Assembly: GCA_965644265.1 (NCBI GenBank)
Contig: OZ286472.1
Location: forward strand, 53,010,001-53,074,000
DNA from: Glycera tridactyla
Lineage: Eukaryota
Reading direction: 5' to 3'
DNA length: 64,000 bases
The position numbers and the translations under genes are program-made. Below, piece after piece: positions 36,877 to 59,394 of this stretch (position 1 is its first letter; every line of letters begins with the position of its first letter). Below the pieces are notes generated by a model, which worked only from the letters and a program-made list of their open reading frames with translations, did no database searches and was not told the DNA's origin.

Positions 36877-39800
36877 CTGAAAATGGTTCAAATCAATGAA
36901 TATAATTAGTGCACATCAAATTAATCTGACCTCTTGGATAACTATCAATCAGCCTATGGACTTTTCCAAAATGTTTATTTGTATGCAACATAGATCTAGT
37001 CACCACTCACTAGTCCATACAGGCTGATTTTAAGTGACTGCAATAGAAAAATAGCATTTACCCCCAAAATTCATTGGATGAAAAATCAATTGTAGATTGG
37101 TTTGTTTTCTAGAGTTGAGGTTCAATGGCATGATTCAACCCAGAGGATTATGTGAAGCTGTGAACAGTCCCATGCAGGTAACACAAGCCTAGAGCTCCAC
37201 ATGATGGAGAACCTCAAAGGTAAAGTGGCAGTAGGTGACTGTCCAGACATCACTCAACCTATCTGACAATGACAATGACAATGACAATGACAATGACAAT
37301 GACAAATCTTTATTTTGATAGGCGAATACAGCATTACATACAAGCAATAATATCACATATGTTTCAAGCATTCAGATCAAGACCTGGTTTGCTGCTGCGA
37401 CCTATGTGCCTTGTATATCTAAGTCAGTATTCCACCGGGTGGATAAGGTAAGATGGGGTTCATACTTAAATATCAGTATCGGATGTCACAATGTGGAACC
37501 AGGGTATACTCAGATCGACCACAAAACTGGTGTACTTCATTTGAAGAACAATTCAGCTGCTATTTCATACATTTACATTTTCTGCCAATTTTCTATTGAA
37601 ATATGCCTTATCAATGATAATGTACTGAACATAACAAACACAATCAATGTTCGATGGCTAAATTTTGTTCTGTTGCTCCTGCTAACTCAGTTGAACTAAC
37701 CACTTAATGTGTTATGTCAGCTCTGTGGGTTGTACTAAAGTGTTTACAATCTGTTCACAAAACTAAATGAAATACCTTCTAATTAGATCTTTACTACCTT
37801 CCAGATGTGGCTGTCACCTTTGATAGCATAGTCTATTTCCAGTTTCTAATCTTCATGTTTCATTTGTCTGGTTGCAGATCGTGCATACAATATGGACCTG
37901 GCTGACAACTAGTGTGTGCACATATTCCATGTGTTATGAGGGCACTCCGGAATGAGCTAATGTGTACATCCTGTTACCAACTACTGCTGATGGAAACAAT
38001 GAAGTCTTTCACAGACTTTCTTATATGAATCATACAGAGAATAGTCTCTTATACCTGCCTTTAAAAGTAGCCAATTTCTCTGAGTTTCTGAGCCCTAGTG
38101 GGAGAGAATTCCATATTATAGCTCCATTGACACTTATTGCTGATCTTCCTAATGCTGTTCTACACCTGGGTACAATGAAATCATTGTTCGCTGAAGCCCT
38201 TGTAAAAACATCGTGTCTCATGTGCAATCTTTCAAATTTTTCCAACAATACCTTGTATTTCAAAATATCCTTAGCCACCTTGAACATGAGTATTGCCAGG
38301 TGTTTGAGTCGTCTGTCTGCAAGGGGTGATATCTTCAATTCCTCATGCATCCAACTAGTGCTGGTATATTTATTGCCACGAAGAATGCATCTACAAGCAG
38401 AGTTCTGTAGAACCTGGAGGCGCTCAAGGTTATTCAAAGAGGTATACATGTATATAGTGTCTCCATAGTCGAAATGCGGGAGCACTAATGATTTATAAAG
38501 CATGAGGGCTGTTTTTTTCATTTATGAATTGTCTAATGTATTTTAATGCCCACAATTTCTTCTTTGTTTTCTTACATAGTTGCTCAATATGGTTATTGAA
38601 GTTCAGATGATGGTCGAGAGTTATCCCCAGATATTTAAAACTTTCCACTTGCTCTATGAATTCACCCACCATTTTCAAATTCAATTTGGTCTGCCCCTTA
38701 TAAGCTTTCGATTTGAATAGCATTGATTTAGTTTTCTTTACATTTAGCGTTAACTTGTTGGCGGCCATCCAGTTGCTGATTGAATCTAGCTCCCCCTGCA
38801 GGACGGTTTCAATCTCTGTCAAATCATTGCTGTGGAAATAAATGGCAGTATCATCTGCATATAGTATAGCTTTCCCATAGGACAACATCATAGGTAAATC
38901 ATTTATAAAAATCACAAACAACAATGGACCCAAAATAGACCCCTGAGGAACCCCGAAAGCAATGTTCATCGGCTTAGATAAACCTTCCCTGAATTTAGTC
39001 ACTTGGGTTCGATTTCGAAGGTAGGATCTGAACCAGGCGTTCGCACTGCCGACCACTCCATATTCACTCAGTTTGTCACATAAGATACTATGGTCGACAG
39101 TGTCGAACGCCTTTTTCAGATCCAGAAACACCATACCGGTGAGTTTCTTTTCATCAAGAGACCTGTATATGTCATCCAATACACTGAGACAGCAAGTTAT
39201 AGTCGAATGACCCTTTCTGAAACCTGATTGGTTAGGGTCAAACAACATATTATGATCAAAGAAGTCGTAGAGCTGGTCATGAATCACTCTCTCTAAGATT
39301 TTTCCCATGACAGGTATGACTGATATTGGGCGATAATTGCCCGGTTCGTTTCTGTCACCTTCTTTGAATAAGGGTGTAACTTTGGCTGTTTTCCAGTCAC
39401 TGGGTATCACATGGCACCTAATTGAACAATTAATGATATGGGTTATTGGTTCAGATATGATGTCAGCAGCATACTTGATGAACCTCGTGTTTATCCCATC
39501 AAGCCCTGTTGCCTTTGCCATGTTGAGACTTTTCAACAATTTCTTGATTTCAACCTCACTGACTGCTCTGAAAGAAAAAATATTGCCATTTGCAGTTAGT
39601 CTTGGGAGCTCGTTTCTATTCATTTCAGGTATCTCTCCAGCAAGTTTGGAACCAACAGTGCAAAACATGGTGTTGAACTCGTTGGCTATATCTTCATCAT
39701 TACTTTTACCATTTATCACAACATTTGATTGACCACTTTTATTTTTGGCTGGGAGCAGTTTTCAAATTGTCTGCCATAATTTCTTCATATCCCCTTCATT

Positions 39801-42800
39801 TTCTTGCAAAGCTGAATCGATATATTCTTTCTTTAAATTTCTGCCAAGGGTTGTTGCTGAATTTTTCAGACATCTGTATCTATGATGGTCAAGTTCAGAT
39901 CTACTTTTATTGTATTTTCTTTTCATGTCATCTCTGGCATCGCAAATTGATAAAAAGTCATGATTTATCCAGGGCGGGAGTCTGCCCCTGACTTTGATCA
40001 TTGTAAACGGGGCACATGTGTCACAAACCTGGAGAAATAATCCTTTAAAAGATTCCCAAGCCTCATTTGCATCAAATTTAGAAATAACTCCAGACCAGTC
40101 AATGAGTGCAATCCTTTGGTTGAAAACATCAAGCTAAAATCTTCTAAATGACCTAACCCGTATGAATCTTGCTTTTGCCTTACATCTTATCAATTTCCTT
40201 TGAAAAAATATGAGGTCATGATCAGTGCACCCCACAGGAATGGCACCCGCCAAGGCTATAATCTCCTCCCTATTTGTTAAGAAAACATCAATACATGTAC
40301 TACTCTGAGGGGTAACACGAGTGGGGACATCGATCATCTGACATAGATTATGCAAATAAGACATATTTCGCAACAATCTGTATGCTCTAGTAGTTCTGTC
40401 CAATTGATTTATGTTTACATCTCCAAGAATATTTATTTCACAATTGTGTTTGTTTGAGCAAAAGGCAATAGCTGTTTCCAATATTGACAGTCCTGTTTGC
40501 ACATCACCATGAGGAGGTCTATAAATGTTGATCAGGAAGACTGGTCTTGTATTTGTAAAATTCACCTGGAGACCCAAAAATTCAATGTCTTTTGAGCTGT
40601 GGTTCAACTCTGGGACACAAGTGACATTCAGATCCGCTTTCACATAAACACAAATCCCCCCACCACTCTGTCTATGGCTGTGATCCTGTCTATCAAGTCT
40701 GTATAAATTGTAGCCCTGGATTTCCATGTGAACATTTTCAATTTCTGTAGTTAAAAAGGTTTCAGATACAGTCGAACCTGTCTATAAAGACCGCCTTCGG
40801 TCGCATCAAAAAGCGGTCTTTATGGGCAGGTGGTCTTTATAGAGAGGTCATTTACTGGTTAAAATACTACCACGGTCGCAGTTCAGGTGGTCTTTATAGA
40901 GAGGTGGTCTTTATAGAGAGGTGGTCTTTAGAGCAGGTTCGACTGTACTCCCAAAATGTCAATTGAGCTGTTTTGTAATATTCTGATCACTTCCTCTACC
41001 TTATTTCTTAGGCTACATATATTCAAATGACCAAATGTATGTCCCTTCAGGTTTTGCAAGTTGCTCAAAGTTTGTTCAGACATTAAATTTTGAAGCAATG
41101 ATTAGCCCTGAAAATCTATTCTGATTCATATAAATGCACTGAACAAAAAGGCATAGCATGTATTCATGGTCTCCAGGAATCATAAAACAGCTTTCATCAT
41201 TATATAACAGGAAATGCATTTGTATACCCCAAGAGAGTTTCACAGCCTCAGATTTTGGTAATAGGTTCTCAAGTGATTTCATATCTGCAGCTATACCTGT
41301 ATACCCAAGTTTGTGGTAGAAATCAGCCCCAGCATTTTCAAAATATATAGCACTATGGATGTTATAGAATCGTTCAGTAAAATGGATATGATCAATGGTA
41401 TGAACTATGAATCCATCATTCTCCTGTGTTACAAGGAAAAGATGATAGATATGTCTTGTACTAGCCCTCTTGACAATGAGCACTAGAATCAGCTGTGTAT
41501 CCTGTTGTAAACATGTTTGCTCTATGTTGCAATAAGTGATAATATTGGATCATATTACATTGTCAACATTCAAACATCTTTTTATGTCATGCATGGAAGA
41601 AAATGATCACATAAACATTCTTACTTTGGTGTGTAATAAAACAACATTTTTCATCACATTCATGGTTTGTCATTCTTTCTTGTTTCACCTATCCGTTTCA
41701 ATATTGGTAATAAGCACTGAGAGAGATATCGTACATGCATCACTGAGAACCTCTCAGCTGGTCTCTAGCTTAGAAAAACATGCATTTTGACAGCTGTCTC
41801 ATCAAGACCACAGTCAACACACATTATGTTATTCCTACAAGGGGAGGTGCTATGGTCAAAGGTGGGATATCGAAGCAAAGTCATGGTTGGATGGGGTAAT
41901 CAGACAGAGTTATCTCACAGCTGTACATCCCCAAACGGGCTACAATCAAAACAAGAGATCGGCGGGGGAACCACAGAACAGATGCTGAAGCCGATTCAAG
42001 ATGAGATTATGGCAAGTGGTAGGTTGCATTACGATACCCGATACCCGGAGTTAGGCACATTACCCCTCAATCCTGCTGCCTGGGTCAATATCCAGGCTTG
42101 TATCACACTGTTTGTATCGATAAACACGATAGTTTATTTGTCGAAGTCCTCGGATCTTTACCATAACCTCCATGTTTGATTCCAACATCCGGGCCTCATT
42201 AGACTAGACCAGGATGGTACGCGTCACCTGATTGGCTGACCAAGTCACGTGAGTGAGTTCGCCAATAAAAAGTACAGACGGCCTCTTCGGTCATTTCCAA
42301 TTGTTGTCAGTTTGACAAAAGTAGTTCCGACAAGAGAGAATAAAGTTCCATTCATCTATGTTATTTTAGCCCACAGTTCTATCAAGAGAATCATCAAAAA
42401 GCCATCCTTGTCCAAAATGAGAGTTTGATTATCCTTCATGCCTACTTATGAATAGTTTCAGCAAGGAATGCATGCCATCCTGATCTTGCCCCACCCCCCA
42501 CCCTCCAATATGAGAAATTGCCCGTGGCTGTTATGTCTTGGACACACCCTCCAGATTAAAGTTGCATCTGATAAACTACCTAGTGGCAGCAAATAACACA
42601 ACCAAAGAGATAGTTGTCCTTTGAGCAAGAAATATTTCTGACCAGGCATTTTATGATTGCCAAATTTAATTTAGAATCAGTTCTGGTTGAAATAATAACA
42701 GGAAAATTTTTACAGAGGATGAGATGAGGTTAATGTTTTTCCTTGAAAAAAGAAAGAACACCTCAACAATACCATACTGGTCTATCAGGTAAATCTTGCT

Positions 42801-48356: not shown

Positions 48357-48979
48357 TGGTGACCTGGTGATCTATCTGACCTCGTTGGTACGCACAAGAC
48401 AGACTACTCCGGTTGTGTGAACGACAACTTCAACCTCAAAATGCAGCGCTCCGCTAAGATTGTGGCCCCTCTCAGTCGGTGGTTTTACCAAGGAAGTGAG
48501 CTGGTTGTTAACAGGTAGTTTATTCGATCCATTCATGCATTGGCTAGAGTGATTTATTTGTGTTACGTAAGTTCTATTTGACCATCGTAGCAGACGATTG
48601 TGAATTGGGTGTGTGGATTCTATGATGAGTCGTGTCTAACATCACGTTTTGCTATGTTTACATAGACCATACTGTCATCCAACATAATGACTCAGCCATC
48701 TATCTCAGTACTATGCTTGCATTGCATCCGATGCACTGAGAAATAACCTGAATCAACATTTATTGAGGAATGGGTGCAGGGGTCCTGAAATTTATGTAAT
48801 CACCAGTGGCCCTTTTCACTGTTCATTGGTTGTTCCACTCATTGATTGATGCATGCCATTGTCAACACATATCTCAGATATCAGCTGGATATGAAGCAGC
48901 ACCTTATCTGGATTTGGAGGAATATGAAACAGTGATAGCATGTATGCCCTCAGTGAGGTCGCTTCACCGACTTAGATAT

Positions 48980-49182
48980 TGTGGTGCGCGCGCCGCCGCG
49001 AATCGGCGGCGGAACTAACGCCGGCGCCTGCGCAGCCGGAATCGATAGAGTTTGGCTCACGGCGTTCGCACTACAGCACGTCGTTAGTCTTGAGCCTGAG
49101 CTCAACTCCACCATCACACAACAATCTGTGTATCTACTGATCCAAGTAAGTAGTAATCAGCATTATACAACCCAGCACAACA
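48980..49182 (+). repeat. 5' LTR (203 bp)
   Basis: No difference from the 3' LTR found by eye. CpG-rich first half with an 8-bp GC hairpin CGCCGCCG-cgaat-CGGCGGCG (48991-49011). GTAAGT at 49146-49151. No AATAAA or ATTAAA seen. Confidence 0.97.
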
Positions 49183-49183
49183 T

Positions 49184-49197
49184 TGGTGTCAGATGTG
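49184..49197 (+). promoter_or_regulatory. Primer-binding site, probably tRNA-Leu
   Basis: TGGTGTCAGATGTG, 1 nt after the LTR. One mismatch to TGGTGTCAGAAGTG, the complement of the metazoan tRNA-Leu(CAA) 3' end (recalled sequence). Confidence 0.75.
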
Positions 49198-50430
49198 CTA
49201 AATGGTGGCCCTATTTCGTGTGACATGGTGTATTTATCAGGCTTGTAGCAAGAGTGTTTGTGTTCCATGTTGAATGATTGCCCATGTGGGTGCCTTTGTT
49301 CTCTGGAGCACATGTTCTTGCACTACCTGCCCAACTGTGTTCAGTGTGGTTTTACATTAGGACTTTTGCATGATCATTCGAATTCGATATCTGTGATTAC
49401 GCTATGAACATACAAATGATATTCTGAATTTATTTGAGGAATTTGGTGTGTTCTGCCCATTGTTTGTGTCACATGTGGACTTCACACATGTGGTCCATTG
49501 TGATTGATTTCAGTGCACATGGTCTGTTATTTGATAATTGATTGATTTCTAGTATTTGTATTGTCAGTTCATCTGAATATCCATTGCTTCTCGAGAAACA
49601 ACTAAAGGATAAATTAAGTTTGTTGGGAGATTTACTGAGGTTTGCCCATTGTTTGTGTTAAATGTGGACTTAGGTTAATTGTAAATCAGTTAAATGCCCA
49701 ATTGTGAATCAGTTCAATGACCATACGTTTGCTCTCTGGTATTTGTTAATTCTGCTAAAAGTATCCGCATTGTCATTTGGAATTGAAAAGAAATGATTCT
49801 AGGGAAATCAGCTACATCCTAGATGTGTGTTATTGTGGATTTCATGTGTTTTGCATGGTGTCAGTGCCACATGTTGACTTGTCTTTGTTCAATGTAATGT
49901 TCAAATGCACATGGTTATGCGTAGTGATGATCAATAGCTATAATACTCATATCATTGCTTTGATTTAACATTTAATGGATTTGCTGGAGGGAATCTTTTG
50001 ATATTAATTTACATGACTTTGGGTGCCTTTGTTAAAATTACACATAACTTATGTGATTTAGTTGTTTCAATTCAACTGAAGCAGGATTTCATTTCCATTT
50101 ATCTTACCATGGGATCAGGAGTATAAGCGAATGACATACATAAATATTAGGTTCAATCAGTCTTAAATATATAAGTGATATTTGTGAATGTATTGCATGC
50201 ACATGTTATGTACTTGTTCTCTGTGAACCTCCTGTCACTGTTGGCCCTTGAATAGCCCAGTGGGTTTTTTCGGCTGCGCTCAATTAACCCTGTGTTTGGG
50301 GGTTGACAGTGTTGGTTGGTTTTGCTTTGCCCTGCATGGTGTGTGCATGATTCACATTAACATTATTGTAAGGACCATATTCTATTCGTAAGTCTATTTT
50401 CTCTCTGTCCTGTCTTGTTTGTGAACCAAA

Positions 50431-52239
50431 ATGGCTAGTAAAAAGAAAGTTGATCTGCGGGTGGCATCGCAACGTGAGATAGCCTCAGTGCCAGGGCTGA
50501 ATCATGATCTGGCAGCATCGGTGTTACAGTTGCGCGACCCTGAGGTGGGACTTGGTATAACCTTGGACGGGCTGAGGTGTATAAATGGGGCGGGCGATCT
50601 ATTTGACCGCCTATTGGAATGGGGTCTGATTGTTTTCGAGGGAGATGAAGAGGCAGATCATGACTCTGATGCCACAGTGGTGGATCTCAAGTCAGCAGTT
50701 GAGGCACTGCGGAAGGAGATGGGTGACCTGAAAAGGAGGTCCATTTCTCGCCATACTGTTGATCGGCTGGCCCCACAGGGAGTGTATCGTCGACCCAGGG
50801 ATGATGAGGATATGTGGGGGGAGGATTATTATGACAGGTCGGGGCGTGATGTTGAGAAACGCAGAGAGAGGGATGTTTCTCCAGTCCAACCTGCCTTCGA
50901 GTCCACTCCGGTGGACAGTTGGGATTATAGAGGGACTTCTCGGCCGAGCTCAGTTGACCCTCATGACCCACTGCATGACGGATGGAATCGAGGGTATGGT
51001 GGTAGAGACCATCAAGGGGATGGGCGACATGGGTACCATGGGGGGCATGATGAGGGGCCACGACACCCGGGATATCGTCAGGTCCCCCCACCCCCACCCT
51101 TCCCACAATATCCAATGCCTCCTTTCCCTCCCCACCAGAGTAATGGCTATCCCATGCGCGACCCCTACGCCGGTGGACGGCATCATAACGAGTGGGGAGA
51201 CTATATCCCAGCCATGCGTGATTACCCCCCTCGACCAAGGACCCCACCACCTATGATGGGAGTTGGTGATGCAGCTACATACGGCGGAAGAATATTGGGA
51301 CGCCCGGGATTGGCACCAGGCGGGGGGCCCCGCCAGTCCCCAAGGGGACCTCCACCACCAAAGATGCCAACTTACAATGGCAAGCAGGAGTGGAAGCCAT
51401 TCTTCATCCAATTCGAACGGATGGCGGCAAGATACGCCTGGGATGAAGTGGAGAAGCTTGACAAACTCGTGGAATCCCTGCGAGACAAAGCGCTGAAATT
51501 CTTCAGTGAACGGCCAGAAACAGATCAAGTAGATTACTACCAACTGGCGGCAAGGATGGCTGCACGTTTCGGGAAGAAGGATCTCCCACCAACTGTTCGT
51601 CGCCAGTTGCAGACGGCTCGACAGAACACCGAGGAGACCTTGGAAGAGTTCAGCGACCGGGTTCTTGAGCTGGCTACGGATGGCTACCCGGGGGCTCCGT
51701 CCTCTATGATCGAAACTTTGGCTGTTGATGCCTTCTTGAAGGGATGCACGGACAAGCATGCTGCACTCATCACCATGGACAAAAACCCATGTACCCTTGA
51801 CGGCGCTCTTGCTATGGTGAAGTCAGCCGTACACAACAAGTCGGCCCTACTCGGAAAACCCCAAGGAAAGATAGATGTTAAACAACTGTCATTCGTGGAT
51901 GAGTTGGAGAGTGAGGACGACTTCAGTGTGCGGGCCATCAACCGACCCTCTGTATCATTCTCACAGGGATCTCGGGTGTCCCGGGTGGACCGCCTGGAGA
52001 AAGGGCTTGCAGAGGTGGTAGAGACACAGAAAAAGCTCTTGGCCATGATGAGCGCATCAGGGTCGAATACCAGTCGTCCTGTTACCCAGCGGGCCGTGTC
52101 CCCGGGACGGGATCGGTGCTTTCGCTGTGACCAGCCGGGGCATTTCAGCCGAGACTGCCCACAGAGGGAAGGCTCACGGCCGGGCTCAAGGTCCCAATCT
52201 CCATCGCCCGTGGGAAGTCGCCCGGCACCCCCAAAATAG
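50431..52239 (+). CDS. gag: Gag (602 aa): N-terminal HhH-like domain, disordered linker, capsid-like domain, CCHC knuckle
   Basis: KMPTYNGKQEWKPFFIQFE capsid-type start; CFRCDQPGHFSRDC = CX2CX4HX4C. Confidence 0.93.
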   Translation: MASKKKVDLRVASQREIASVPGLNHDLAASVLQLRDPEVGLGITLDGLRCINGAGDLFDRLLEWGLIVFEGDEEADHDSDATVVDLKSAVEALRKEMGDLKRRSISRHTVDRLAPQGVYRRPRDDEDMWGEDYYDRSGRDVEKRRERDVSPVQPAFESTPVDSWDYRGTSRPSSVDPHDPLHDGWNRGYGGRDHQGDGRHGYHGGHDEGPRHPGYRQVPPPPPFPQYPMPPFPPHQSNGYPMRDPYAGGRHHNEWGDYIPAMRDYPPRPRTPPPMMGVGDAATYGGRILGRPGLAPGGGPRQSPRGPPPPKMPTYNGKQEWKPFFIQFERMAARYAWDEVEKLDKLVESLRDKALKFFSERPETDQVDYYQLAARMAARFGKKDLPPTVRRQLQTARQNTEETLEEFSDRVLELATDGYPGAPSSMIETLAVDAFLKGCTDKHAALITMDKNPCTLDGALAMVKSAVHNKSALLGKPQGKIDVKQLSFVDELESEDDFSVRAINRPSVSFSQGSRVSRVDRLEKGLAEVVETQKKLLAMMSASGSNTSRPVTQRAVSPGRDRCFRCDQPGHFSRDCPQREGSRPGSRSQSPSPVGSRPAPPK

Positions 52240-55200
52240 AAAGAGCTGCCTTTGTTGGCCACAGGACAGCTCGCAGGGACACTGGCCAAGATCACGATTT
52301 TAGTAATATTCTGGATCCGGCTGCGCTCGATCTGGAAAGGAAATGCACCAGCTCGGTGGGGACAAGTGACTCCTACGACTCGGCAGGGCTCAGTCAACAG
52401 AGTCAGATCACCAACCTCGTCATGGATTCAGCCGACTCGGCGGAGCTCAGTCATGCTGATTCTGATGATGACCGTGACGGACAGGTTACTGGACGGACAG
52501 ACGATGCAGTCATGCTCTACCAATCAGATTCGGCAGCGCTCAATCAGGATGGCATGGCAACGGCTGCATGTACTGCACAGACGGAAGACAGACCGGAGGT
52601 GCGGATACGGGAAGTGACATTGTTCGCCGACACACGGGGCCCCATGAAGAACTTAACCATTCCAGCGAAAGTAAATGGGACACCGGTCCCCGCGCTGGTG
52701 GACACGGCGGCCCAAGTGTCGGTCATCAGTGAAGAATTTGCGGCGACCGTGAAAGAGCCTCTGACCTTGACGGACCATTTATGGCTAAGGGGGGCCGGAA
52801 AAGGAAGCAGATTCCCGGCGAGACAGGCAGTCGGAACCCGCATTGACCTGGGGGATACCCTCTACCTGCATGATGTGGTGGTCGCTCCCATCAATGACCC
52901 TTTCATCCTGGGCCTGGACTTCATGCAAAAGCAAGCCATGAAAATAGACATGGCCAGCAACTCTATTCAGGTCGGGGGGGATACCCTTTCCACGCATATA
53001 ACAGACACATGTGCTGGCTCCGGGCGTGTCCGGGGCCTGACCTTGATCGGCGACGTAATTGTGCCACCAGGCTCGATGATCCATGGAACAGCTCGGATGG
53101 AGGGACCGTCAACGATTCCCAGCGCGATGGTGATCGATCCCAGGCCGGACATCGGAGGAATCATGATTCCACACCTCATGGTCAAAGGTCAGCCTGTGGT
53201 TTCCGTCCTCCTGATAAATCCCACGGATCAACGGGTCCATCTACAGGGTGGATTGAATCTGGGATCGGCAGAAGAGGCGGATAAGTTGCTGATCACAAAG
53301 ACACACATGGAAAGCGATAATTTGACACGGAGTGTGCGTCGCTTGGGAGCCGATCAACCAGGGGTTAGTAACCTGCCTGAGTTCCTGGAAGATCTAAGGA
53401 ACCGCTCGAGTAAGCACCTGTCAGAGGCTCAGTCGGCGGCGCTCACTGGCCTCCTCAAGGATTACACGGACGTGTTCGCCAGGGATGATATGGACTTGGG
53501 TCGGTTCACAGCGATCGAACACACTATTGACGTTGAAGGAGCGAAGCCAGTGCGCCAAGGGATGCGTCGCACACCTATCGGATTTGAGGCAGAGGAGAAG
53601 AAGCACCTGGAGGGCATGTTGGAGCGCGGAGTCATCCGACCGTCATCCTCAGGATGGGCATCTGCACCGGTCCTTGTACGAAAAAAATGCGGAGCAGTCC
53701 GATACTGCATCGACTTCCGGGCGCTGAACGCTGTCACCAAAAAAGATGCCTTCCCTTTGCCGCTAATTGAGTCATGCATGGATGCCTTGTCGGGGACCAA
53801 GTTTCTGAGCACATTGGATTTAGCGTCTGGCTACTGGCAGATCGAGTTAGCGGAAGAGGATAAGCCCAAGACTGCCTTCATCACTCGCTATGGCCTGTTC
53901 GAGCATGAACGCATGCCCTTTGGCCTTTGCAATGCACCGGCAACCTTCCAGAGGGCCATGCAGTTAGTCCTACATGGCATGCTATGGGAAGAATGTTTGG
54001 CCTACCTTGATGATGTCGTGGTGCTCGGTCAAGACTTCGGGGATCATCTGGAAAAACTCAAGCGAGTGATGGATCGGTTTCGAGAGTACAATTTGAAGTT
54101 GAAGCCCAAAAAGTGCGTGTTGTTCCAGAAAGAAGTACGCTTCCTAGGACATGTAGTGAGTGGCACTGGAGTGGCGGTGAATCCTGACAACGTCGAGTCT
54201 GTGAAGACCTGGCCGGAGCCGAAATCAGTAAAGGAGGTGGAGTCATTCCTGGGATTCATCAATTACCATCGGAACCATATCGCTCATCTGGCGGATCTGA
54301 CAGCTCCCCTAAATGAAGTGACCGGGTCTAAGGCCACCTTCAAATGGGGTCCAGAGCAACAGGAGGCATTTGAAAAGATCAGGGCCGCCATGATCAGCTC
54401 GGCAGTGCTCAGCTATCCCGACCCTGATCCCGAGTGTACCTTCATATTGGATACAGACGCCTCGGACCGAGGAGTAGGGGCCGAGTTGTCACAAATCCAA
54501 CGGGGATGTCCGAAGGTCATCTCATATGGTAGTCGGGTCCTGACCCCAACACAGCGACGCTACTGTACCACTCGCAAGGAACTCCTTGCAGTAGTTACCT
54601 TCACCAGACAGTATCGTCACTACCTTCTCGGACGTCACTTCATCGTTCGTACTGACCATCATAGTTTGACATGGCTACTGAGGTTCCGCAATCCTGAAGG
54701 CCAGCTTGCCAGATGGTTGGAGGAGCTTGGCCAGTACAGCATGGAGATAGTACACAGGCCGGGAAAGGACCACACCAATGCAGATGGACTTTCACGCATC
54801 CCAGACAACAACCTAAAATGTGACTGTTACTCCTCCGGTTCGGATCCCAAATTGTTACCATGTGGAGGTTGTAGCTACTGCCACCGAGCTCACAGCCAAT
54901 GGACGCGATTCGAGGAGGACGTGGATGATGTAATCCCCATTGCCATTCGGTCGGTGTCTCACACCCCAAACGACAATAAGACGGACGTGAAGCACGGTGG
55001 CCACATCAATTGGATGGAGACCTACACGCCGGCAGAACTATCCCGACTCCAACACGAAGATCCTGATCTCAGGGTGGTCCATGACTTTTTGAAGGAAACT
55101 TCAGTGGAGGAGACCCCAGAGATTTTCCTGAGTAGCCCTGCCGTCAAGCATTGGTGGCTAAACAAGGAGCAGCTGGATGTTAAGGAGGGTGTCCTCTACT

Positions 55201-56723
55201 ATAGATGGGAAAGTGATCATGGCCCAACTCTCCAGTTCCTGGTGCCTGAGTCACTGAAGCAGGAAGTGCTCAGTCTGTGTCATGACAGAAGGTCTGCTGG
55301 ACATCTCGGGGAGAAGAAGACACTTGCTCTTCTTCGTAACCGGGTGACCTGGTATGGAATGTCTAGGGACTCAAAGCTATTCTGTCGCAGTTGTGCAACC
55401 TGCAGCTTGAACAAAAAGGCAAACGTGAAGGCAAAGGCACAGTTGGGACAGTACCATGCAGGGGCACCCATGGAGCGGGTCCATATGGATATTCTAGGAC
55501 CACTAACACCATCTGCCAAGGGCAACCTCTACATCTTGGTTATAATATGCCAGTTCACCAAGTGGATAGAGGTATTTCCACTCCCTCGTCAAACTGCTGA
55601 GGACGTGGCCAGTGCAGCATTTGACGGATTCATCAGCCGGTTTGGTTGCCCTCTTCAAATCCACACTGATCAGGGAAAAAACTTTGATGGCAAACTGTTC
55701 CATGCTTTCTGCAAACTTCTCGAAGTCACCAAGACGCGTACCACGCCTTACCGGCCGGCAGCAAACGGTCAGGTCGAGCGGTACAACCGCCTCATTTTAC
55801 AGATGGTACGTTGTAACCTGGAGGGTGGACAGAAGAATTGGGATGAGCATCTTCCTTCCCTGGCCGGGGCAATCCGAGCCATGGAAAACAGGCAAACCGG
55901 GTTCACGCCGAATCTCATGATGCTAGGGAGAGAGGTACTCCAGCCAGTAGATTTGCTCTTTAGGCCTCCACCAGAGCAGGAAAAGAAGAAAACACCAGCA
56001 TCGTATGTATCTGAGCTCTGTGAAAGGCTCCGGAGAGCACATGAGCTAGCAAGAACAAATGTTCGAGCAGCCCAGCGAAGACAAAAAAGGGACTACGACG
56101 TTCGCCTCAAAGAACACACGTATGCCGTGGGAGATCTGGTGTACCAGCTGAACTCGGCTACCAGAATAGGACAAAGCAACAAGCTGAAACGACCCTGGAA
56201 GGGCCCCTTTCTGGTGACCGAAGTGCTCTCGCCGGTGGCATATCGAGTGAACAGCCGCCGGAAAACGCAGGTTGTGCACCACGATCGGCTTCGTCTTTGT
56301 GAGGACAGAGTGGTACCCTTCTGGACACGGAGGATGAGACACCAGTTGCTGGACCTGGACACCACCATCGGCTATGACGAGGCAGAGCGGGAGGAGGAGG
56401 ATGAAGACGATGAGTTGCCATTTGGTTTGGATGAACTGCTTGACCCGCTGCACAACACCCCTAGTCTGAACCCTGGCCCGGCGGAGCTAGGCCAGGGAAA
56501 GGAGGTTAGTGCAGTACCAGACCTACATGGTGAAAAAGAGGAGGCTCTGTCCGAAGGTGATGCACCGGAGCCTGGCCCGGCAGAGCTAGGCCAGGCTTCT
56601 CAGACTTATGACAAAAAGGTAGTTAAACCCCATTCTGCATGTGTAGATCCTCCCCTAGATCCCCTACCACGTCGACGGGTGCGAAGGCAACCCAAACGGC
56701 TGGAGGGGTTCATCCTTGACTAA
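52230..56723 (+). CDS. pol: Pol (protease, RT, RNase H, integrase), in the -1 frame relative to gag
   Basis: PR LVDTAAQVSVI; RT ERMPFGLCNAPATFQR and YLDDVVV; RH DTDASDRGVG and KELLAVV; IN H-H-C-C zinc finger plus D(MDILG), D(TDQG), E(VERYN), and a GPF motif. The frame is open from 52131; the start shown is the inferred shift site. Confidence 0.96.
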   Translation, partial: PKIERAAFVGHRTARRDTGQDHDFSNILDPAALDLERKCTSSVGTSDSYDSAGLSQQSQITNLVMDSADSAELSHADSDDDRDGQVTGRTDDAVMLYQSDSAALNQDGMATAACTAQTEDRPEVRIREVTLFADTRGPMKNLTIPAKVNGTPVPALVDTAAQVSVISEEFAATVKEPLTLTDHLWLRGAGKGSRFPARQAVGTRIDLGDTLYLHDVVVAPINDPFILGLDFMQKQAMKIDMASNSIQVGGDTLSTHITDTCAGSGRVRGLTLIGDVIVPPGSMIHGTARMEGPSTIPSAMVIDPRPDIGGIMIPHLMVKGQPVVSVLLINPTDQRVHLQGGLNLGSAEEADKLLITKTHMESDNLTRSVRRLGADQPGVSNLPEFLEDLRNRSSKHLSEAQSAALTGLLKDYTDVFARDDMDLGRFTAIEHTIDVEGAKPVRQGMRRTPIGFEAEEKKHLEGMLERGVIRPSSSGWASAPVLVRKKCGAVRYCIDFRALNAVTKKDAFPLPLIESCMDALSGTKFLSTLDLASGYWQIELAEEDKPKTAFITRYGLFEHERMPFGLCNAPATFQRAMQLVLHGMLWEECLAYLDDVVVLGQDFGDHLEKLKRVMDRFREYNLKLKPKKCVLFQKEVRFLGHVVSGTGVAVNPDNVESVKTWPEPKSVKEVESFLGFINYHRNHIAHLADLTAPLNEVTGSKATFKWGPEQQEAFEKIRAAMISSAVLSYPDPDPECTFILDTDASDRGVGAELSQIQRGCPKVISYGSRVLTPTQRRYCTTRKELLAVVTFTRQYRHYLLGRHFIVRTDHHSLTWLLRFRNPEGQLARWLEELGQYSMEIVHRPGKDHTNADGLSRIPDNNLKCDCYSSGSDPKLLPCGGCSYCHRAHSQWTRFEEDVDDVIPIAIRSVSHTPNDNKTDVKHGGHINWMETYTPAELSRLQHEDPDLRVVHDFLKETSVEETPEIFLSSPAVKHWWLNKEQLDVKEGVLYYRWESDHGPTLQFLVPESLKQEVLSLCHDRRSAGHLGEKKTLALLRNRVTWYGMSRDSKLFCRSCATCSLNKKANVKAKAQLGQYHAGAPMERVHMDILGPLTPSAKGNLYILVIICQFTKWIEVFPLPRQTAEDVASAAFDGFISRFGCPLQIHTDQGKNFDGKLFHAFCKLLEVTKTRTTPYRPAANGQVERYNRLILQMVRCNLEGGQKNWDEHLPSLAGAIRAMENRQTGFTPNLMMLGREVLQPVDLLFRPPPEQEKKKTPASYVSELCERLRRAHELARTNVRAAQRRQKRDYDVRLKEHTYAVGDLVYQLNSATRIGQSNKLKRPWKGPFLVTEVLSPVAYRVNSRRKTQVVHHDRLRLCEDRVVPFWTRRMRHQLLDLDTTIGYDEAEREEEDEDDELPFGLDELLDPLHNTPSLNPGPAELGQGKEVSAVPDLHGEKEEALSEGDAPEPGPAELGQASQTYDKKVVKPHSACVDPPLDPLPRRRVRRQPKRLEGFILD

Positions 56724-56833
56724 CCAGACACCCTAGCGGACAGTGAGGGGATTGCATGGATCCCCCTCAAACCTGGTTTTGACCAGCAATAACATAACAT
56801 TCTCTCTGCCCCACAGGTCAAAATAGTGGCAAG

Positions 56834-58327
56834 ATGGCTGAATACGAAGAACTCGTACTCGATTATGATGAGGAGGGTTTGGCACAGGAGGAGCCATATG
56901 TGCCACACTCCATACCCAGGGGGGCCACAAGGGGAAGGGGTTCTTGGTGTCCCCTGTGCCCTCATCGTTTCACTCATGTGAGGCGGCATGTTATATCCGA
57001 TCATCTACCCTGGTACACCTGCCCCTCGACAGCGTGTTGGATCTGTGGTCAGCAGGAACAACATGTCTCATTCGTTCTGAGGCACCTGTTGACTCATGAT
57101 CAGGCCTCTTCTGGGCAGTTCCAGTCCCAAAATGCTGGTGAGGAGTATGTCTACCTCATGAACGGGCTCCTGCACGAAATCGGCCAGGTAAATGGGTTGG
57201 CCGACATTCCCGCCCTCTTCGAGTATGTCCGGGGCCAGGAGAGCCTTCATCCCAAGTCAACCACCCCAATCAGATCCCTGGATGTGGAACTGATGGGGCT
57301 GTTCCTGTCAGTGAACAGGCAGGAAGCGCCACCTTCGTTCAGCTTGACGCCGCCGAACTCTCCAGCATGCCTGCTCCATTGGCGAGTATTGGCAAACTTG
57401 CTGGCAGAGCTCCCCCTCCATGAGCAACGGCGTCTGCGGGAACTTGGCGTCCGCAGAGACTATTGGGGTGAGGCCTTGCAGGCCCTGCCAGAGGTGGACC
57501 AGGTGTGGGCAGGGGAGGTTGTCGACGCCCACCTCCACTTAGATGCCTGGTGCAAGCGCACAGGATGCCAGAATTTGGGTGGAATCCTGGACCTCCCCGG
57601 TGTCGGACAATTTCCATTCCAGCTCGTAGGCGCAGTTTCCAATCTGTGCTGGCCAAGGTCCTGGCCGGGGGCTCAGGCGAGGGCTCGCCTCCTTGAAGAC
57701 AATCGGGTCCGACTGACATTTGGCATCCATCCCCGCATAGCTTCAGACCCTAGTGTGTCAGATGCCGCCTTGAGGGGTCACTTGGCTGCTCTCCGCACCA
57801 ATCTGAATGCTGACGGGGTTGTGGCCGTCGGAGAATGCGGACTCGACTATACCGCTTGCCCCGAGGGGAATACGGCAATGCGGCGGCGTCAGGAGGGGTG
57901 CTTCTTGCATCAAGTGCTCCTGGCAGAACCAAAAGACCTCCCCCTGGTGATTCATAGCCGGGATGGAGGTACGGGCTCAGCGGCAGAGCGGTGTCTGCAG
58001 TTACTGAAGTCAGTCCTGCCGCGTCACTATCCGGTGCATCGGCACTGCTTCACGGGGTCCCTCCAGGAGTACCAACAGTGGAAACATGCATTTCCGCGGT
58101 GCATTTTTAGCATCTCGCCCTTGGTCCTCCAGGATCCCGTCCTGTGCCAGGTAGTCCGGAGCATGGAGATCGGAAGTCTCGCTCTCGAGACTGACGCTCC
58201 CTACCTGGCTACATCATTTGCATCCCTGGGGGAAATTGCAGAGGTCATTGGCAGGGCACACAATATCCCATCCTCATTAGTTCTGAGGATCACCACCCAG
58301 ACAGTCCGAGCCTTTTACGGTCTGTAA
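56834..58327 (+). CDS. C2H2-zinc-finger/TatD-family nuclease fusion (497 aa), inside the retrotransposon
   Basis: VDAHLHLD, FGIHP, VGECGLDY, LPLVIHSR, HCFTG and LETDAPY are the ordered TatD metal-binding motifs. N-terminal C39-C42-H52-H57 and C68-C71-H84-H88. Kozak aagATGG; intronless. Confidence 0.93.
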   Translation: MAEYEELVLDYDEEGLAQEEPYVPHSIPRGATRGRGSWCPLCPHRFTHVRRHVISDHLPWYTCPSTACWICGQQEQHVSFVLRHLLTHDQASSGQFQSQNAGEEYVYLMNGLLHEIGQVNGLADIPALFEYVRGQESLHPKSTTPIRSLDVELMGLFLSVNRQEAPPSFSLTPPNSPACLLHWRVLANLLAELPLHEQRRLRELGVRRDYWGEALQALPEVDQVWAGEVVDAHLHLDAWCKRTGCQNLGGILDLPGVGQFPFQLVGAVSNLCWPRSWPGAQARARLLEDNRVRLTFGIHPRIASDPSVSDAALRGHLAALRTNLNADGVVAVGECGLDYTACPEGNTAMRRRQEGCFLHQVLLAEPKDLPLVIHSRDGGTGSAAERCLQLLKSVLPRHYPVHRHCFTGSLQEYQQWKHAFPRCIFSISPLVLQDPVLCQVVRSMEIGSLALETDAPYLATSFASLGEIAEVIGRAHNIPSSLVLRITTQTVRAFYGL

Positions 58328-58442
58328 GGAAGCTGCCAATGTATCAAGGGGGGCTGCTGGCCAGCTGTGGATTCATCTGGCTCCTATTTTTCGATCTGAC
58401 CAGGTAAGTTGGGGGCGAATGTGATGTGACTTCAATTCCTAG

Positions 58443-58969
58443 TCCGGCTGAGCTCGACTTAGGATCCACGTATGATCCATGCATTCTCCTTCATCCCTGG
58501 TAGCGCTTGAGAAGTCGAAGCCAGATAGGTTGGCCCCATAGTAGGAGTCCTAAGCGTTATTGTTGTCAGTCCGGCAGAGCTCGACTGGGGACACTAAGAC
58601 TTGCCAATTTGATCTGTCTCCCCTCCTCCGGCTGAGCTCGAGAAGTGGAAGCCAGAACTGTAAATAATTTATTGATCCTTGCCAATTCTTGCCATCGGCC
58701 TGTCCTTCCCTCCTCCGGCTGAGCTAGAGGGGTGGAATCCAGGCATGTATATATTTTAGCTAGCCTTGGATCAATTACGTTGGTCCACGGCAGCATATAT
58801 TCCCATGTAGTACATTTTGTCTCCCCTCTTCCGGCTGAGCTCGAAGTGTGGAAGTCCGAAATGTATATATTGTAATCTAGTTAAATTGTTTATGTGTTCC
58901 GTACCAGTTGCACTCGGTACGAGACCTCCTTCTAGTCTCTGACCCGTTTCCTCCTCCGGCTGAGCTCGA
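58443..58969 (+). repeat. Six dispersed copies of TCCGGCTGAGCTCGA in the retrotransposon 3' UTR
   Basis: Copies start at 58443, 58570, 58627, 58714, 58830 and 58955 (0-1 mismatch). The last four extend into ...GTGGAAG-like tails. Confidence 0.9.
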
Positions 58970-59142
58970 GGTATGGAAGTCAGAACTAGGATTATCGTTG
59001 TATTTATATCAACCAAGCCAAACTACCCTCCATTGAACCCTTTCATTAATCAACCTTAGCCCCAATCTACTAGTTCCCGGGGTCATTTTCAGGTACTGGG
59101 GGACCCTAGATCGGCTGTGCTGAACAGGGTCCCAATTTATAT

Positions 59143-59154
59143 GACGGGGAGGAG
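59143..59154 (+). promoter_or_regulatory. Polypurine tract
   Basis: GACGGGGAGGAG immediately upstream of the 3' LTR TG. Confidence 0.85.
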
Positions 59155-59357
59155 TGTGGTGCGCGCGCCGCCGCGAATCGGCGGCGGAACTAACGCCGGC
59201 GCCTGCGCAGCCGGAATCGATAGAGTTTGGCTCACGGCGTTCGCACTACAGCACGTCGTTAGTCTTGAGCCTGAGCTCAACTCCACCATCACACAACAAT
59301 CTGTGTATCTACTGATCCAAGTAAGTAGTAATCAGCATTATACAACCCAGCACAACA
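59155..59357 (+). repeat. 3' LTR (203 bp)
   Basis: Direct repeat of 48980-49182, preceded by a purine tract. Confidence 0.97.
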
Positions 59358-59394
59358 ATATCACTGAATGATATCCATACTCTGCTACCTTGAA

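Follow-up and report, generated by a model that had tools for sequence, protein, structure and literature searches.

Can a retrotransposon Gag protein begin with a ComEA-like DNA-binding domain, and what would such a domain do for the element? This question is raised by a stretch of 64,000 nucleotides of the Glycera tridactyla genome (assembly GCA_965644265.1, contig OZ286472.1, forward-strand positions 53,010,001 to 53,074,000), hereafter the window. A preliminary description had proposed that gag starts here with a double helix-hairpin-helix (HhH) domain serving as a DNA or chromatin tether, which might act on cDNA together with a TatD protein encoded by the same element. The peptide quoted in support was correct. 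It sits at the ATG of a 602-aa open reading frame (50431-52239; + strand, as are all features below unless stated otherwise), identified as gag by Retrotrans_gag, PNMA and zf-CCHC matches.

The host of this gag is an intact 10.4-kb LTR retrotransposon bearing all the marks of Ty3/gypsy (Metaviridae). A target-site duplication (TSD), ATAT (48976-48979, right copy 59358-59361), encloses two identical 203-nt LTRs with TG...CA ends (48980-49182 and 59155-59357). A candidate primer-binding site (PBS), TGGTGTCAGA (49184-49193), stands after the 5′ LTR, a motif found at this place in a further six copies, once in altered form, and a polypurine tract (PPT), GGGGAGGAG (59146-59154), precedes the 3′ LTR. 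Gag comprises, in order, the HhH domain, a short helical stretch, a Pro/Gly-rich linker, a Retrotrans_gag/PNMA-like capsid (aa 312-480, 51364-51870) and a CCHC zinc knuckle (zf-CCHC, 52114-52164), the latter two recognized by Pfam profiles. The pol open frame (52131-56723, first ATG at 52422) encodes protease, RT, RNase H and integrase in Ty3/gypsy order. Since pol lies in the -1 frame, a -1 frameshift probably occurs at the heptamer C CCA AAA read just before the gag stop (52230-52236). ORF3 (497 aa, 56834-58327) encodes two Cys/His zinc-finger-like motifs followed by a TatD domain (57509-58324; PF01026, E=6.6e-33). The 1.25-kb leader ahead of gag (49183-50430) holds three 56-nt repeats and 38 ATGs; because it would be hard to scan through, splicing or internal initiation is possible. 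By eye, a putative splice donor, GTAAGT, lies within the 5′ LTR (49146-49151), and a putative acceptor, a pyrimidine tract ending in CAG (56799-56816), 17 nt upstream of the ORF3 ATG, suggesting a spliced ORF3 mRNA. In a search for expression, two contig runs of low share contained no joints. The 3′ untranslated region (58430-59010) carries short repeats with the core CCGGCTGAGCTCGA, including four 64-nt copies at 58618-59009. Elsewhere in the window, LINE fragments with RT and endonuclease matches occupy 38493-40727 on the - strand.

Profile searches supported the ComEA-like assignment. As a single sequence, aa 4-36 matched HHH_3 (PF12836) with E=1.3e-4 and 22.4 bits, under the Pfam cut-off of 27 bits, which Gags of related families clear with up to 47.6 bits; aa 3-56 matched the comEA profile TIGR01259 (E=0.007), and the match of the window domain alone to EEPD1 was weak (E=0.043), Protein A matches in that search being rejected as repeat-summed noise. 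A 12-row profile of Gag N-termini from the same genome retrieved EEPD1 (9e-26, two stretches summed) and two ComEA structures (5e-14 and 4e-13), as well as KIF22 and Tex. A word-based search with aa 1-75 returned no matches. When a profile was built from 103 other Gags, leaving out the lineage of the window copy, it matched the window domain with E=6e-10, the match spanning positions 2-68 of a total of 70.

Structure prediction pointed the same way. An AF2 model computed from 47 rows (pLDDT 79) places helices at 14-19, 25-35, 45-50 and 55-64, forming two consecutive helix-hairpin-helix units. Its top Foldseek match was ComEA 8dss (prob 1.00, rmsd 2.5; E=0.056, not significant by E). The same structure came first in VIA-align (Z 8.4, rmsd 2.7, 66 aligned, moderate for a small helical domain), followed by Tex (7.4), 2duy (7.2) and a remainder at ≤5.3. 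The single-sequence AF2 model gave weak fold matches only, with ComEA first at E=2. The ESM Atlas returned HhH clusters at 0.82-0.89, which are leads only, none of them eukaryotic. The Pfam and structure-prediction checks that the preliminary description had suggested thus agree: by profile and predicted fold, Gag residues 6-69 (50446-50637) are an HhH domain of the ComEA/EEPD1 type. The domain ends slightly beyond the interval first given, 50431-50620.

The single-sequence score below the Pfam cut-off, together with the loss of canonical residues described below, could mean that the HhH domain of the window copy is a non-functional relic or a chance resemblance. Its E-value against a profile lacking its own lineage argues against this, as does its recent evolution. 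The window family has seven copies in the 2.04-Gb genome, all with long, open gag frames and Gag N-termini 97-100% identical. Three further copies have retained two complete LTRs, with 0, 1 and 3 differences within the pair, and two other copies have an exact 4-bp TSD; the family is young. Across the six other copies, the distinct changes in the HhH domain (aa 1-70) number 7 at synonymous and 3 at non-synonymous sites (pN/pS 0.14, p=0.004); the same copies gave 0.12 for the capsid, 0.34 for the linker and 0.18 for TatD. The HhH domain of the window family is under purifying selection, the count being 10 changes among close copies; dS values between families are mostly saturated. A relic or chance match is therefore largely refuted already, and we regard it as highly improbable. 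A related copy (84% identical) has contributed its 5′ leader and gag start to a tandem array of ∼42 units of 1284 bp elsewhere in the genome (G000:C28:100808777-100861669, loci L008-L012 and L103-L105), which stands before that copy, itself a decayed element.

Whether the domain has the means to bind DNA was assessed by residue counts on HhH-Gags: 220 proteins, reduced to 124 with full domain and full capsid, and to 106 after dereplication at 90%. In V. cholerae ComEA, G60 and K62/K63 are reported to be needed for DNA binding, which their loss abolishes or cripples (PMC3879209). In the alignment register, Gag positions 24 and 27 correspond to G60 and K63. Position 24 is Gly in 91/106 and position 27 Lys or Arg in 88/106, with both present in 80/106; R35 is found in 90/106. 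The second hairpin tells another story: G-x-G occurs there in one of the 106, the window copy alone (G53-A54-G55, 50587-50595, private to the window family), and the family has [IL]-P/S-x-x-x-W instead (P in 63/106, W in 88/106). Set against the conservation of positions 24 and 27, this private G-x-G indicates that the clade combines one canonical with one modified hairpin. Since the second hairpin is non-canonical family-wide, symmetric two-strand binding of the (HhH)2 kind is unlikely.

The preliminary description had recognized both hairpin glycine motifs (VPGL and INGAG) in the window copy, and this part of it did not hold. The first hairpin, G22-L23-N24-H25-D26-L27 (50494-50511), reads G-L-N then H-D-L rather than G-h-G plus a basic pair, the family consensus being G/N-I-G-x-K/A-R, and the G-A-G of the second is the private motif just described. 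With N24, D26 and L27, the window copy lacks equivalents of ComEA G60, K62 and K63, and the net charge of its domain is -1, family domains being near neutral. All three signature residues are missing in 7/106 Gags, three of which (the window copy, family K and P0001) group together on a single branch in the capsid tree (support 0.95). Within this trio, HhH identity is 24-32% at 68-70% capsid identity, compared with a median HhH identity of 46% over 204 comparable pairs. Judged by its residues, the window copy is among the most degenerate of the clade. The idea that the window lineage acquired its domain anew from host EEPD1 was considered and found unsupported: its three members are no nearer to EEPD1 than other Gags are (ranks 15, 33 and 43 of 106), and the tree gave no resolution. 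The host does have an EEPD1-like exon with two HhH domains (L101:2866-3912), the best HHH_3 match in the genome.

The preliminary description had named poor conservation among related Gags as grounds for abandoning the HhH call, and the domain proved to be widely conserved. It starts at the first Met in 11/11 other Gag families aligned from this genome, and a capsid-only query found 74 public proteins, 53 with an N-terminal HhH domain, those without it mostly starting downstream. Twenty-one of the 74 are named, all from bivalves (Mytilus, Crassostrea, Ostrea and Pinctada), and 11/21 have the domain. In a profile search of 1.84 billion representatives, 98 of the best 150 matches bore both HhH and capsid, as did 92 of 100 profile matches whose capsid lies 200+ aa in; both counts are biased because the query profile included the HhH domain. 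Six metagenome loci were compared: HhH-gag, pol and TatD occur together on L084, whereas L085 begins inside gag and includes TatD, and L087 ends 500 nt past pol; no viral contigs were found.

The genome contains 88 HHH_3 matches and at least 151 TatD matches (150 of 203 candidates scored, 150 matches listed). Twenty loci were inspected, eight with HhH and TatD, ten with TatD only and two with HhH only. All eight double-hit loci are gag-pol-ORF3 elements. Among the ten TatD-only loci, five have an HhH domain at Gag Met1 that Pfam missed, one has the second half only and four have no gag-pol in the stretch. One of the HhH-only elements is interrupted by a LINE and the other breaks off in integrase. 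The nearest sister group (capsid 24-27% and RT 52-54% identity) has neither HhH nor TatD in 6/6 elements; these elements (L089-L100) have long LTR-like repeats and a different ORF3 of 405-634 aa, without a Pfam match apart from one weak C2H2. A 24-row RT tree separates the HhH/TatD group (15 rows) from the sister group (6 rows) by a single branch with 100/100 support, the other three rows being unlabelled. On this sequence evidence, HhH-Gag is a trait of a whole Ty3/gypsy clade. ORF3-type TatD frames lacking gag and pol upstream in the stretch were seen at L063/L064, L109/L110 and L065-L068; two of the TatD copies without gag and pol, 93% alike, adjoin simple repeats.

Co-occurrence of HhH and TatD across family members, predicted earlier, was confirmed. 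For 64/88 HHH_3 matches (chance 0.08), TatD follows on the same strand at a distance of no more than 25 kb, as it does for 45/47 matches in frames of 500+ aa and for 7/7 copies of the window family. An HhH match lies upstream of 74 of the 150 TatD matches listed. In ORF3, D231, H233, H235, E334, H374, H404, E452 and D454, which we take to be the TatD metal ligands, are invariant in 16/16 rows. This linkage, the joint presence on metagenome contig L084, the invariant ligands and the low pN/pS of TatD would all suit a scheme in which HhH and TatD cooperate on cDNA or RNA:DNA intermediates, holding or trimming ends or hybrids. Human TATDN2 is reported to degrade RNA in R-loops (PMC10711561), which is one possible activity of ORF3. 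However, both traits map to the same branch of the RT tree, so their co-occurrence reflects one shared origin, a single event offering no independent pairs, and does not test cooperation.

ORF3 also travels without gag-pol. A mini-element (L071/L072, G000:C13:38.259-38.262 Mb) consists of LTR, short leader, TatD ORF3 and LTR, with gag and pol deleted; its two LTRs are almost the same and a 4-bp TSD flanks it. It was rejected as a clean spliced copy, since 13 other bases with an ATG occupy the joint. Moreover, if Gag is arranged as in Ty3, its N-terminus would point outwards, leaving HhH outside the capsid and away from the cDNA. Named bivalve proteins make up 21/74 of the Gag matches and 0/24 of the ORF3 matches listed, a weak sign that some HhH-Gags may be without TatD. 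Prediction of an HhH-ORF3 complex, run without alignments, scored 0.00 and speaks neither for nor against cooperation; the ESM Atlas gave no matches for ORF3. Joint action on cDNA, as first proposed, is thus unsupported, and we consider cooperation unlikely.

Some relatives carry further domains. Three related families of this genome, which form one branch of the RT tree (97/96), have a Macro domain (PF01661, E as low as 1.5e-23) inserted after HhH and ahead of the capsid (L043:1979-4474, L051:2048-4783 and L053:2089-4704, >25 copies). The same arrangement occurs in 3/37 long public Gags scanned (P0142, P0233 and P0238). P0087 joins a TatD of the ORF3 type to NADAR at its C-terminus. Together with the fast-changing HhH surface in one lineage, these additions could indicate counter-defence, with HhH cloaking or sequestering cytoplasmic DNA while TatD and macrodomain or NADAR erase the hybrid and ADP-ribose signals read by sensors and PARPs. 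A Pfam profile search found neither Macro nor NADAR in the window element, though, and the fast change may be relaxed constraint; we judge counter-defence to be unlikely.

What, then, is the domain for? The likeliest role for the clade is a DNA or chromatin tether, because the first hairpin keeps the ComEA signature in 80/106. With moderate confidence, we propose from these sequences that HhH acts as a many-copy, sequence-independent tether outside the particle. The N-terminus of Ty3 Gag is reported to run outward, with 540 copies per capsid (PMC6525542), and EEPD1 (HhH)2 domains to bind DNA only when multimerised, the domains being needed in the four-copy dimer (PMC12988330); by profile alignment, EEPD1 hairpins too are without G-x-K/R. 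By analogy with this outward N-terminus, multicopy shell and multimer-only binding, ∼200 Pro/Gly-rich residues between HhH plus helical stretch and capsid would place the domain on a flexible arm of ∼240 aa outside the capsid, where hundreds of weak sites could together hold DNA through avidity, so that the particle or the pre-integration complex reaches chromosomes more easily or stays on them. The outward N-terminus likewise makes a multivalent tether likelier than cDNA processing. Against the tether, the protease could release the HhH domain from Gag. TatD would be an accessory nuclease inherited along with HhH and probably translated from spliced RNA.

The tether proposed in the preliminary description therefore survives for the clade, with a second hairpin that is not canonical, and is qualified for the window's three-member sub-lineage, which has replaced all three residues. 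There, with the canonical contacts gone, the prediction is that binding is weak, depends on avidity alone or has given way to contact with a protein. This bears on a further explanation, in which HhH is a matrix-like module for protein interaction or self-assembly, its fold co-opted and DNA binding incidental. Conservation of the structural and hydrophobic positions A12, L17, W58 and G65 (100, 100, 88 and 80 of 106) equals that of the positions for DNA binding, the family has its own W-x-x-L-x-x-x-G-x-I tail, the fold of the window lineage is under selection without DNA contacts, and (HhH)2 domains are reported to dimerise in XPF-ERCC1 and Mus81-Eme1 (PMC12988330). Yet K/R27, G24 and R35, which make up the ComEA DNA-binding patch, persist across capsid identities of 30-40%, and we hold the protein module to be a doubtful explanation.

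The tether would make HhH-Gag a concrete candidate route by which env-less LTR retrotransposons reach host chromosomes, a route known for few models. The domain is kept over more than 100 divergent families, and these provide natural variants, some with the signature, some without it and some with a macrodomain in addition. TatD as ORF3 is a new enzyme type for the env slot. More speculatively, and with considerable doubt, the clade may be an undescribed, widespread invertebrate gypsy lineage with a borrowed DNA-repair toolkit, an HhH tether on each capsid subunit, a catalytically intact TatD in the env slot and ADP-ribose erasers in some branches. With these the particle would hold on to chromatin and remove the signals of DNA damage and innate sensing that its own cDNA provokes, the HhH surface evolving under conflict in the window lineage. 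As most HHH_3 and many TatD matches in the genome are transposon-borne, they would inflate counts of gene families. Automatic annotation already puts PF12836 on many HhH-Gag proteins, and such Gags are mislabelled in databases, two Mytilus proteins bearing the name comEA.

A search of freely readable articles returned no account of a Gag with an HhH domain or of a TatD ORF3; such elements may be described in Repbase, subscription journals or supplements. Terms for TatD and HhH are absent from the main texts of PMC6238403, PMC8220671, PMC13524379 and PMC6431247, and no macrodomain on Gag appeared among the literature matches listed. A C. elegans CERV paper, considered as a prior helix-hairpin-helix Gag, concerns a different protein.

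Compared with known systems, the Gag domain shares with ComEA (PF12836; PDB 8dss, 8dfk and 2duy) its fold and the start [VI]N[IL]NTA-x-x-x-[EQ]L-x-x-[LI]PGIG-x-x-RA; it differs in being fused to a retrotransposon capsid protein, in its [IL]P-x-x-x-W second hairpin and the tail noted above, and, in the window copy, in lacking the three binding residues. Its best eukaryotic sequence relatives are EEPD1 (HhH)2 (PDB 9yi2), KIF22 and Tex/Spt6 HhH, and unlike EEPD1, which has two such domains, Gag has one per chain. The window element is like other Ty3/gypsy elements in its LTRs, PBS-like site, PPT, 4-bp TSD, gag zinc knuckle and PR-RT-RH-IN order, and unlike them in the folded HhH at the start of Gag and in a zinc-finger/TatD ORF3 in place of Env. 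The function proposed here recalls MLV p12 and the chromatin-binding site of foamy virus Gag, short peptides that bind nucleosomes and tether the incoming complex to chromosomes, whereas the window Gag would use a folded, DNA-backbone-binding fold. The closest system in the literature found is the bdelloid rotifer LTR elements, whose enzymatic ORF3s are reported to encode a DEDDy 3′-5′ exonuclease and a GDSL esterase (PMC5408684). In these elements, too, the env slot is taken by a gene for a nuclease; the nuclease fold is another one, the accessible text mentions no HhH on Gag, and the rotifer ORF3s are reported to show no departure from neutrality, whereas the window ORF3 is under purifying selection.
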